A DNA stretch of 64,000 nt from IMG/VR virus record IMGVR_UViG_2778261540_000003. One strand, written 5' to 3'. Source of the DNA: a virus (taxonomy: Duplodnaviria; Heunggongvirae; Uroviricota; Caudoviricetes). A program made the translations under genes and the position numbers. The notes beneath the pieces are model-generated. The model searched no databases and had not been told where the DNA came from. It was given only the letters and a program-made list of their open reading frames with translations. Positions 861 to 934 of this stretch are shown here, in pieces (position 1 is the first letter of the stretch; each line of letters starts with the position of its first letter).

Positions 861-934
861 GGTAAGGGTATTTTGCGACGTCGGAGATCGCCGAGCTTGG
901 CAGAGGGTTCGAATCCCTACGAAGTACCCTTACC
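861..934 (+). ncRNA. tRNA-like structured element (canonical T-loop, 10-bp terminal stem, non-canonical core)
   Basis: ggtaagggta ... tacccttacc closing stem around gggttcgaatccc; 74 nt long but D-arm and anticodon arm cannot be folded canonically; no encoded CCA. Confidence 0.25.

Follow-up and report, generated by a model that had tools for sequence, protein, structure and literature searches.

A conserved tRNA-like RNA element lacking an anticodon arm on a recurrent scaffold helix in the ban operon leader of bacteriophage P1

In the leader of the ban operon of phage P1, directly downstream of the tRNA-Thr gene, we describe a cassette (positions 853 to 942, plus strand, of the 64,000-nucleotide stretch of phage DNA analysed here, called the window) that we hold with great confidence to be a genuine RNA element under selection. 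A tRNA gene, a pseudogene and coding DNA can all be discounted with the same confidence. From the structure, conservation, strand, modularity and genomic context of the cassette, which are documented here, we propose with a probability of about 0.5 that it is a tRNA mimic unable to decode, carried by a processing scaffold and excised from its transcript.

P1 is among the most studied phages, and the annotation of ~1.5 kb of its ban leader holds only two tRNAs, a "dicF-like" note and two doubtful ORFs. Bases 1 to 3000 of the window are 100% identical to Punavirus P1 MH422554, and the first ~1.56 kb is 98.6% identical to the reference P1 NC_005856, in which the cassette itself is identical. Mapping of the P1 annotation places the C1-controlled promoters P1ban and P2ban with the operator Op72 at ~16-45, the "dicF-like region" at ~140-241 and tRNA-Asn at 699-774 (called by ARAGORN as well). 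The immediate upstream neighbour of the element, presumably on the same transcript, is tRNA-Thr(UGU) at 777-852 on the plus strand (ARAGORN and Rfam, 72.9 bits), and downstream come ORFs, ban and tRNA(CAT) at 2657-2732, the tRNA-Met(cat) of ARAGORN. The element stands ~800 nt into the leader of this early, repressor-controlled operon and on the same strand, Pban, the tRNAs, ban and the element all being co-oriented; lying in a C1-repressed leader, it would therefore be made early after induction. Transcription from Pban is assumed to read through a terminator-like hairpin (206-233) before it reaches the element. The scan for internal sigma-70 promoters, which found none in 1-2800, also misses the annotated Pban and so carries little information. 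The leader gains and loses tRNAs among relatives, with a tRNA-Tyr inserted in Ro157c2YLVW and a tRNA-Ser in D6 and pJN2-26.

The CCA of tRNA-Thr ends at 852 and, 8 nt later, begins the element as the first-pass annotation had delimited it (861-934). All the features reported there are present in the sequence: the position after tRNA-Thr, a perfect 10-bp stem between GGTAAGGGTA (861-870) and TACCCTTACC (925-934), a perfect T-arm, GGGTTCGAATCCC at 905-917 (a 13-mer occurring once in the 64-kb window, with ~0.11 chance matches expected at one mismatch or fewer), and GTTGTG, not CCA, directly after 934. While core and stem were correctly recognized, the limits were too short: the helix continues, and the unit is 853-942. 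This whole cassette, E2 below, consists of a scaffold helix and a tRNA-like core, scores 109.6 bits with our covariance model R1 and folds at -41.6 kcal/mol (z = -6.05), a stability that none of 200 shuffles equalled; the opposite strand folds less well (-34.4 kcal/mol).

All its parts lie on the plus strand. At the base, CACAAC (854-859) pairs with GTTGTG (935-940), A860 being bulged; CG/AU pairs make up this basal helix in most variants, and the rest carry CCCAC/GTGGG or another helix. The 3' strand GTTGTG can alternatively pair forward with CACAAC at 987-992, closing the next module, and the same alternation is seen in other phages. Above the base, a closing, acceptor-like helix joins 861-875 to 920-934, both strands supported by covariation and RNAalifold, in 14 to 15 bp that include two U.G pairs and carry the conserved U871.G924 wobble; together the two helices make ~20 bp (6 plus 14 to 15, with one bulge). 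The D-like arm (875-891) has a stem, GCGA/UCGC, that is invariant in 19 variants and a loop, CGUCGGAGA (879-887, with GG), that varies at two pyrimidine positions only. This loop keeps the equivalents of tRNA G15, G18, G19 and A21 and has a pyrimidine in place of A14, as would fit a molecule that lacks nucleotides 8-9. Just 12 to 13 nt separate the D-like arm from the T-arm, with room for a stub of 2 to 3 bp at most in place of the anticodon arm (891-903): CC (891-892) faces GG (899-900) across a variable loop of 4 to 7 nt, followed by a YAG linker (901-903). The stub pairs are CG in 18 to 19 of the 19 variants and a third pair is A-U or G.U; the 2- to 3-bp pairing might form, the changes seen in it being one-sided only. 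The T-arm (904-918; AGGG/UUCGAAU/CCCU) is invariant, with a canonical T-loop and a stem of 4 bp, not 5, and the one or two unpaired bases between this stem and the closing helix give a non-canonical geometry for an RNase P substrate. Modelled with all complementary segments in use, the whole would be a four-way junction of closing helix, D-like arm, stub and T-arm. A P1-specific inner hairpin (UCGG/CCGA) of the minimum-free-energy fold was dropped, its 3' strand being CCAU in other variants.

ARAGORN called only tRNA-Asn, tRNA-Thr and tRNA-Met(cat) in the window, and RF00005 matched the element neither at the gathering score nor at E of 10 or below, even when only 96 nt around it were searched. 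The best Rfam resemblances in that 96-nt search were mascRNA (RF01684; 14.9 bits, gathering 42.5) and tRNA-Sec (14.6 bits, gathering 47), the latter reading being rejected on topology and score. From the tRNA repertoire the element has the T-arm with a UUCRANY loop and the D-loop with GG. It has no canonical anticodon arm (5-bp stem, 7-nt loop) and, where a 7-bp acceptor and an encoded 3' CCA would be expected, a helix of 14 to 15 bp plus 6 bp followed by GTTGTG. The core is indeed non-canonical, as first reported: no canonical cloverleaf can be drawn, and the standard cloverleaf with an acceptable score, which had been named beforehand as the contrary outcome, was sought with ARAGORN and Rfam and not found. 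The YrlA model RF02553 matched 719-836 (25.6 bits, gathering 69) and not 853-942, and a YrlA reading was rejected on topology, the order here being D then T, and on score. A tRNA derivative in shape, that is, a tRNA-like RNA or a processing substrate, appears to be the best reading of this fold, in line with two of the options first put forward.

Copies of the element were gathered by BLAST, by exact core patterns in IMG/VR, by a metagenome scan (six added copies, mostly known variants) and by the covariance model on loci gathered otherwise, and 19 distinct variants were aligned (alignments A1 and A2). A genome-contig pattern, TCGGAGAN{8,22}GGGTTCGAATCCC, was too loose, returning mainly true archaeal or MAG tRNAs with a single relevant contig (L169), and was not used as evidence. 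Among 5,426 complete E. coli genomes, 464 contain the element, and hundreds of genomes have it in identical or nearly identical form; P1-like plasmids are present in ~9% of complete E. coli genomes. The core occurs in P1-like phages, in a Uetakevirus and in temperate-phage contigs of roughly 40 to 50 kb, and the element recurs in non-coding gaps of the Uetakevirus BUCT554, a Sashavirus, a 9NA-like phage and an SSU5-like phage-plasmid. No Rfam family or RefSeq annotation covers it, and a literature search covering RNAs of the P1 ban leader, tRNA-like elements of phages and P1 transcriptomes gave no description of it.

In the alignments, 91.5 to 94.5% of the closing-helix cells are paired, against 32 to 60% when partners are slid by 1 to 3 columns, and 10 to 13 of the 20 closing-helix pairs show two-sided changes. 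On four of five measures no shuffle reached the observed helix values, and for further pair types 2 to 5 of 500 did; the junction-adjacent pair alone is seen as U.G, A-U, G-C, C-G and G.U. With no structure imposed, RNAalifold recovered the helix including the invariant G875-C920, the T-arm and a short GCC/GGY hairpin. Both the D-like and the T stems are invariant throughout the alignment, which indicates sequence constraint and lends no covariation support, so that the D-like pairing is a probable one; this invariance is partly due to ascertainment, two of the collection patterns having contained those motifs. Nevertheless, in five copies collected through the tag described below, independently of the T-arm motif, the T-arm is unchanged and the core differs at one D-loop base only, the variable linker aside.

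Moreover, the same core is carried by three unrelated closing helices in different phage groups: GGTAAGRG.../...CYCTTWCC on CACAAC/GTTGTG, GGCGAGGATACTGT/GCAGCGTCCTCACC in contig L081, which keeps the core in a wholly different helix and context, and AATGAGAGCAC/GTGCTCTCATT on CCCAC/GTGGG in L370 and L426. A conserved core combined with compensatory helix changes is the signature of selection, not of decay, and the "decayed tRNA" considered by the first-pass annotation is contradicted by a core kept essentially unchanged across phage groups and three helices. As to the strand, the opposite one would have A.C mismatches in place of the conserved U.G and the many G.U pairs, and the plus strand folds better, which argues that the functional strand is the transcribed plus strand.

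The scaffold is itself conserved in sequence, with the consensus CACAAC-N-GGTAAGRG...CYCTTWCC-N-GTTGTG, and it recurs within the leader, the flank GCACAACAGGTAAGGG being present at 414 and 853 and in variant form at 1359. Hairpin E1 (413-501, plus strand; repeat families D2/D5; fold z = -4.36; R1 21 bits) carries this flank as E2 does, around another cargo. Hairpin E4 (1355-1436, plus strand; repeat families D2/D3/D4; z = -7.87; R1 33.1 bits) is a second paralogue, whose cargo contains a GGG-UUCAUAU-CCC hairpin. The long hairpin E3 (1075-1180, plus strand; inverted repeat I1, direct repeat D3; z = -6.72) has a 23-bp stem on an ACAAC/GTTGT base and a cargo motif, GTAACGGGKTCATATCCCAATCTAC, in common with E4. 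None of these three long-stem hairpins has a canonical T-loop. A scaffold-only pattern was found in at least 120 IMG/VR contigs. Taken together, the collected loci have 103 distinct cargoes within the scaffold, falling into 53 clusters, of which the tRNA-like core is the commonest; several other cargoes also set a T-arm against the 3' strand of the helix. In Ro157c2YLVW, a close relative of P1, the same scaffold stands at the same site after tRNA-Thr with a different cargo, and P7 behaves likewise by BLAST coverage, which argues that cargoes are exchanged as units. The first-pass annotation, sound on the core, had overlooked this scaffold, common to three nearby hairpins and to many phages, together with the plp annotation of P1 and the tag template discussed below.

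The arrays thus seen in phage leaders combine true tRNAs, STnc100-like modules, tag templates and scaffold hairpins. The modules between hairpins are closed by the inverse helix GUUGUGGUG...CACCACAAC, from which it follows that each scaffold hairpin is a spacer, with the acceptor-like ends of the adjacent modules supplying its basal helix. In the window, an STnc100-like module at 1431-1551 scores 37.8 bits with RF02076, short of the gathering score of 47. STnc100 and PasD are Hfq-associated prophage sRNAs encoded downstream of Q in lambdoid prophages (10.64898/2026.05.13.724894). In other phages (L295, L405), the modules have tRNA-like bodies with D- and T-arms in which ARAGORN calls no tRNA.

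We propose the following model. The Pban transcript would pass the terminator-like hairpin and reach the element, whose fold would reproduce the elbow of a tRNA and its acceptor/T stack while offering neither an anticodon nor a CCA end. The ~20-bp closing helix would replace the 7-bp acceptor stem, and the GG of the D-like loop would be the bases that dock on the T-loop. In the polycistronic arrays of many temperate enterobacterial phages, this helix presents alternative structured cargoes and stands between tRNAs and tRNA-shaped sRNA modules. RNase III is a candidate for cutting the ~20-bp helix, and/or RNase P could take its measure from the T-arm and cut 7 bp below it, the predicted site being after GGUAAGR and before the next G; G868-C927, seven pairs below G875-C920, would then be the 1:72 pair. 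Such cutting would detach both neighbours, tRNA-Thr on the upstream side and the following module on the downstream side, and the cargo would be released as a small stable tRNA-like RNA. The released RNA may mimic a tRNA, or serve as a decoy, towards a factor that recognizes elbow and acceptor and not the anticodon, candidate targets being processing enzymes, SmpB, T-arm modification enzymes or a defence factor.

The same leader encodes, at 294-326, a template reading ANDDLMMVAA (GCA AAC GAT GAT CTG ATG ATG GTA GCG GCC TAA), which bears on one such target. By inspection, the frame is preceded by a TAG seven codons before it, and no ATG intervenes; in a 661-nt search, the tag region of the permuted-tmRNA models of Rfam aligns here with 24.1 bits (E = 0.007), short of the gathering score of 47. 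With a pattern that excluded P1, the tag module was found in 119 viral contigs, and 22 distinct DNA versions were compared. Its frame always has 10 codons plus a stop and begins AND(D/E); the last codon is Ala, with all four Ala codons in use, all three stop codons occur, and the Leu, Val, Asp and Glu codons vary synonymously. The fixed 10-codon frame and the synonymous variation are strong evidence that ribosomes read the tag, and the comparison shows what appears to be codon-level selection on the template. Contig L368 holds a textbook two-piece tmRNA with the tag ANDDVYALAA, which ARAGORN calls and which served as our positive control. In the enterobacterial tag RNAs, inspection revealed no acceptor strand, T-arm, G3.U70 or CCA of their own; they have a 3' hairpin, GCCGGAGWUCAGCRCCGG-CCACCACAAC, in a T-arm-like position and without the T-loop consensus, and in some a sigma-70-like promoter is aimed directly into the conserved 5' part.

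A tRNA-like domain (TLD) of the tmRNA type, devoid of a tag, is to be weighed as an alternative: the element would be the tRNA-like half of a dispersed phage trans-translation device, either titrating SmpB or, as the detached partner of the array's tag-template RNA, cooperating with it to change, early after induction, how host or phage proteins are tagged. We consider this unlikely. The shape is that of a TLD alone, with an acceptor-like helix, a D-loop region, a stub leaving the junction where P2 would exit, no anticodon arm and a T-arm beside the 3' acceptor strand; the leader carries the tag template with its tmRNA resemblance, a two-piece phage tmRNA with a homologous tag exists (L368), and no acceptor, T-arm or CCA was seen in the enterobacterial tag RNAs themselves. 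Near tags, T-arm hairpins are overrepresented, being present in 44 of 92 contexts and in only 4 of 476 background windows, and 12 of ~22 non-P1 loci have the element within ~300 nt of a tag. There is also a precedent in mycobacteriophage DS6A, whose "TLD only" tmRNA reportedly inhibits host tmRNA, possibly by SmpB titration (PMC4131195, PMC11915505); annotation, ARAGORN and end-pattern scripts did not locate that element in JN698994. On the other side, neither the window nor any of 12 element-bearing loci gave a tmRNA call with ARAGORN, no tmRNA-clan Rfam model matched 850-945, and the element has a D stem, which TLDs do not have, and no encoded CCA. It also has no G3.U70 alanine identity pair: its only conserved wobble is a U.G with the U on the 5' strand (columns 19/73 of alignment A2); it can be placed at 3:70 only by equating the acceptor with the seven pairs nearest the junction, and its orientation is then inverted. 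The variable linker shows no complementarity to the tag RNA by eye. Of 111 distinct tag contexts, only 6 have the element next to the tag, only about half of the tags have a T-arm hairpin of any kind nearby, and BUCT554 and L081 carry the element with no tag nearby; an obligate pairing of tag and TLD is ruled out by these counts.

It is likewise improbable that the element is a decoy for host factors which target or detect tRNAs by their elbow and acceptor end (acceptor-stem nucleases, nucleotidyltransferase toxins, tRNA-sensing defence systems), or a sponge for T-arm enzymes such as TruB or TrmA. Such a role would explain why the elbow nucleotides are conserved (the GG of the D-like loop and the UUCGAAU T-loop) and the anticodon arm dispensable; an early, repressor-controlled operon suits counter-defence, cargo swapping among close relatives resembles accessory or anti-defence loci, and extra tRNAs stand in the same leader. 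Nevertheless, most characterized tRNA-targeting defences cut the anticodon loop, which the element does not have, and this counts against a decoy, as does the want of a free CCA end; none of the data here links a defence system or a toxin to the element.

The helix alone could matter, as a processing or stabilizing spacer of the RNase III type whose tRNA-like cargo is a passenger derived from a tRNA fragment. The geometry is suitable, tRNA-Thr and the following module being separated by about two turns (~20 bp) of largely regular dsRNA; the helix occurs with more than 50 unrelated cargoes, always between modules, and E1, E3 and E4 show that long stems exist with no canonical T-loop. A passenger, however, would drift, whereas the core is near-invariant over three helices and several phage groups while the helix changes, and L081 retains it with an entirely different helix and context, which leaves this explanation rather improbable.

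We regard as very unlikely that the conserved entity is not an RNA, being instead a minus-strand protein-coding gene or a DNA-level site for recombination or attachment. The reference P1 annotates two minus-strand ORFs, plp and upl, over the region, and the comparison with P1 recommended by the first-pass annotation found the core at the equivalent position, under the doubtful plp; in the window, a minus-strand ORF spans 823-1200. This ORF, like plp in P1, overlaps tRNA-Thr, however, plp and upl have no Pfam or NCBIfam match, and RefSeq has no annotation under the element in the 464 E. coli genomes nor under the 708-nt region in hundreds of plasmids; the annotated plp of RCS47 lies elsewhere, and the element recurs in non-coding gaps of unrelated phages. 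Both ORFs are thus probably spurious. The conserved inverted flanks could serve recombinational cassette exchange, and scaffold conservation could reflect DNA-level recombination instead of RNA function, yet a DNA site would have no need of the G.U strand asymmetry. Finally, a decayed pseudogene left by a fourth tRNA gene, for which the tRNA turnover of the region and the tRNA order of D-like arm and T-arm might speak, is extremely improbable given near-identical copies in hundreds of genomes and in distant phages, compensatory helix changes, a helix that is the common scaffold of non-tRNA cargoes, and no intermediate with an anticodon arm among the copies found.

Our results indicate that this part of the ban leader is an array of structured RNA modules, one of them a strongly conserved tRNA mimic missed by annotation pipelines and part of a scaffold-plus-cargo system that unrelated temperate phages exchange. 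Should the cargoes be functional, they could constitute an RNA-level counterpart of the accessory "moron" loci and a source of new tRNA mimics, decoys and regulators, and the tag template raises the testable question of phage manipulation of ribosome rescue. At the least, the plp and upl annotations merit re-examination and a new RNA family could be defined.

Non-decoding tRNA mimics with no anticodon arm are already known (mascRNA, TLD-only tmRNA, YrlA), whereas scaffold-and-cargo arrays and a TLD-less tag template appear to be undescribed in the searchable literature. Like the TLD-only tmRNA of DS6A, the element is phage-encoded and tRNA-shaped, with no anticodon arm and no tag, and in P1 it sits in an operon leader together with a tmRNA-like tag template; unlike a tmRNA TLD, it has a D stem, no G3.U70 and no CCA, and escapes the tmRNA models of ARAGORN and Rfam. 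YrlA (RF02553) shares the long basal helix, a tRNA-like domain with T- and D-arms and the role of a non-decoding mimic, and some Y RNA-like RNAs of the YrlA type are phage-encoded (PMC4201824). YrlA is permuted, with the T-arm before the D-arm, whereas the element has D before T, which explains why RF02553 matched the tRNA-Asn/tRNA-Thr junction and not the element. STnc100/PasD (RF02076) is a neighbouring module type with the inverse basal helix GUGGUG...CACCAC in the same kinds of phage leaders; it is a different RNA, represented in the window by the module at 1431-1551 and not by 853-942. RNase III spacers, such as the T7 early RNA sites and the rRNA operon stems, are likewise ~20-bp, slightly irregular helices between RNAs, and they differ in having no conserved tRNA-like cargo and in not being swappable; cleavage of the element is a prediction. 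In mascRNA/MEN-beta (RF01684), an acceptor-like helix, a D region, a T-arm and a stunted anticodon arm are combined in a non-decoding RNA, as in the element. The likeness is one of shape and not of membership, the score being far below gathering: mascRNA is eukaryotic, has a 7-bp acceptor and receives CCA, whereas the element has a ~20-bp helix and no defined end. Still, mascRNA is excised from a longer transcript by tRNA-processing enzymes, as we infer the element to be.

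Whole tRNA genes have been gained and lost between relatives in the same ban leader, as shown by a tRNA-Tyr inserted between the Asn and Thr tRNAs in Ro157c2YLVW (L003, 1278-1364) and by a tRNA-Ser(UGA) present in D6 (L004, 2107-2193) and pJN2-26 (L007, 2571-2657). This gain and loss among relatives is consistent with a cassette-exchange hotspot. Further downstream (1585-2629), two ORFs, a membrane ORF of 78 aa and another of 275 aa, stand in place of tciA/tciB/tciC of reference P1; the longer one is labeled an SPFH-domain lipoprotein or a "serine protease" in other records, and genes of Stx-converting and P88 phages are ~87% identical to it. 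For the tRNA with anticodon CAT at 2657-2732, both ARAGORN and Rfam give tRNA-Met, a label that is probably wrong because P1 annotates this gene as tRNA-Ile2, a tRNA requiring lysidine modification.

Besides the tRNA-like cassette E2, the array contains three long-stem hairpins, E1 (413-501), E3 (1075-1180), and E4 (1355-1436), with fold z values (folding energy relative to shuffled sequences) of -4.4, -6.7, and -7.9, respectively. The CACAAC/GGTAAG scaffold, i.e., the closing helix around swappable cargoes, or its base, is common to all three, and both E3 and E4 carry the cargo motif GTAACGGGKTCATATCCCAATCTAC, which contains a T-arm-like hairpin (GGG-UUCAUAU-CCC). A 57-nt module (GTTGTGATGAAGTGCAGCTCTTTGAAGCAACCAGAAGATAAGCATCTGGCTTCACAAC; 936-992), closed by the inverse basal helix, shares 80 to 95% identity with sequences of Sashaviruses, of 9NA-like and P22-like Salmonella phages, and of SSU5-like Klebsiella phage-plasmids. 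The STnc100-like module at 1431-1551, which scored 37.8 bits against RF02076, below the gathering score of 47, has at its end CACCGGGAGGCACCCGGCACC and then a T-run; STnc100 and PasD, both prophage sRNAs, are its relatives. Antisense to this structured-RNA array lie the P1 ORFs plp (823-1200, minus strand), overlapping tRNA-Thr, and upl (1201-1530, minus strand). Neither has a family match, RefSeq makes no call for them, and both are probably annotation artifacts.

At the 3' end of the region annotated in P1 as dicF-like (140-241), a strong intrinsic-terminator-like hairpin (206-225, with a T-run to 233) lies within the ban leader. Thus, expression of all downstream parts from Pban, the C1-controlled promoter(s) of the operon, needs read-through or antitermination.

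A tmRNA-like tag template lies at 221-400 and matches, below threshold, permuted tmRNA models of Rfam. Its tag frame (294-326; UAAAU-GCA AAC GAU GAU CUG AUG AUG GUA GCG GCC UAA) encodes the peptide ANDDLMMVAA, and an acceptor stem, a T-arm, and CCA were sought and none was found. Outside P1, at least 119 viral contigs contain homologues of the tag module, and these vary in the manner of codons: the tag keeps a constant 10 codons, all four Ala codons are used for its final residue, and all three stops are in use. The viral contig IMGVR_UViG_3300022926_000558 (L368) carries a genuine two-piece (permuted) tmRNA gene, called by ARAGORN at 7142-7449 on the minus strand. This tmRNA has both G3.U70 and ACCA, its tag is ANDDVYALAA, and the enterobacterial phage tag modules are homologous to its tag region.
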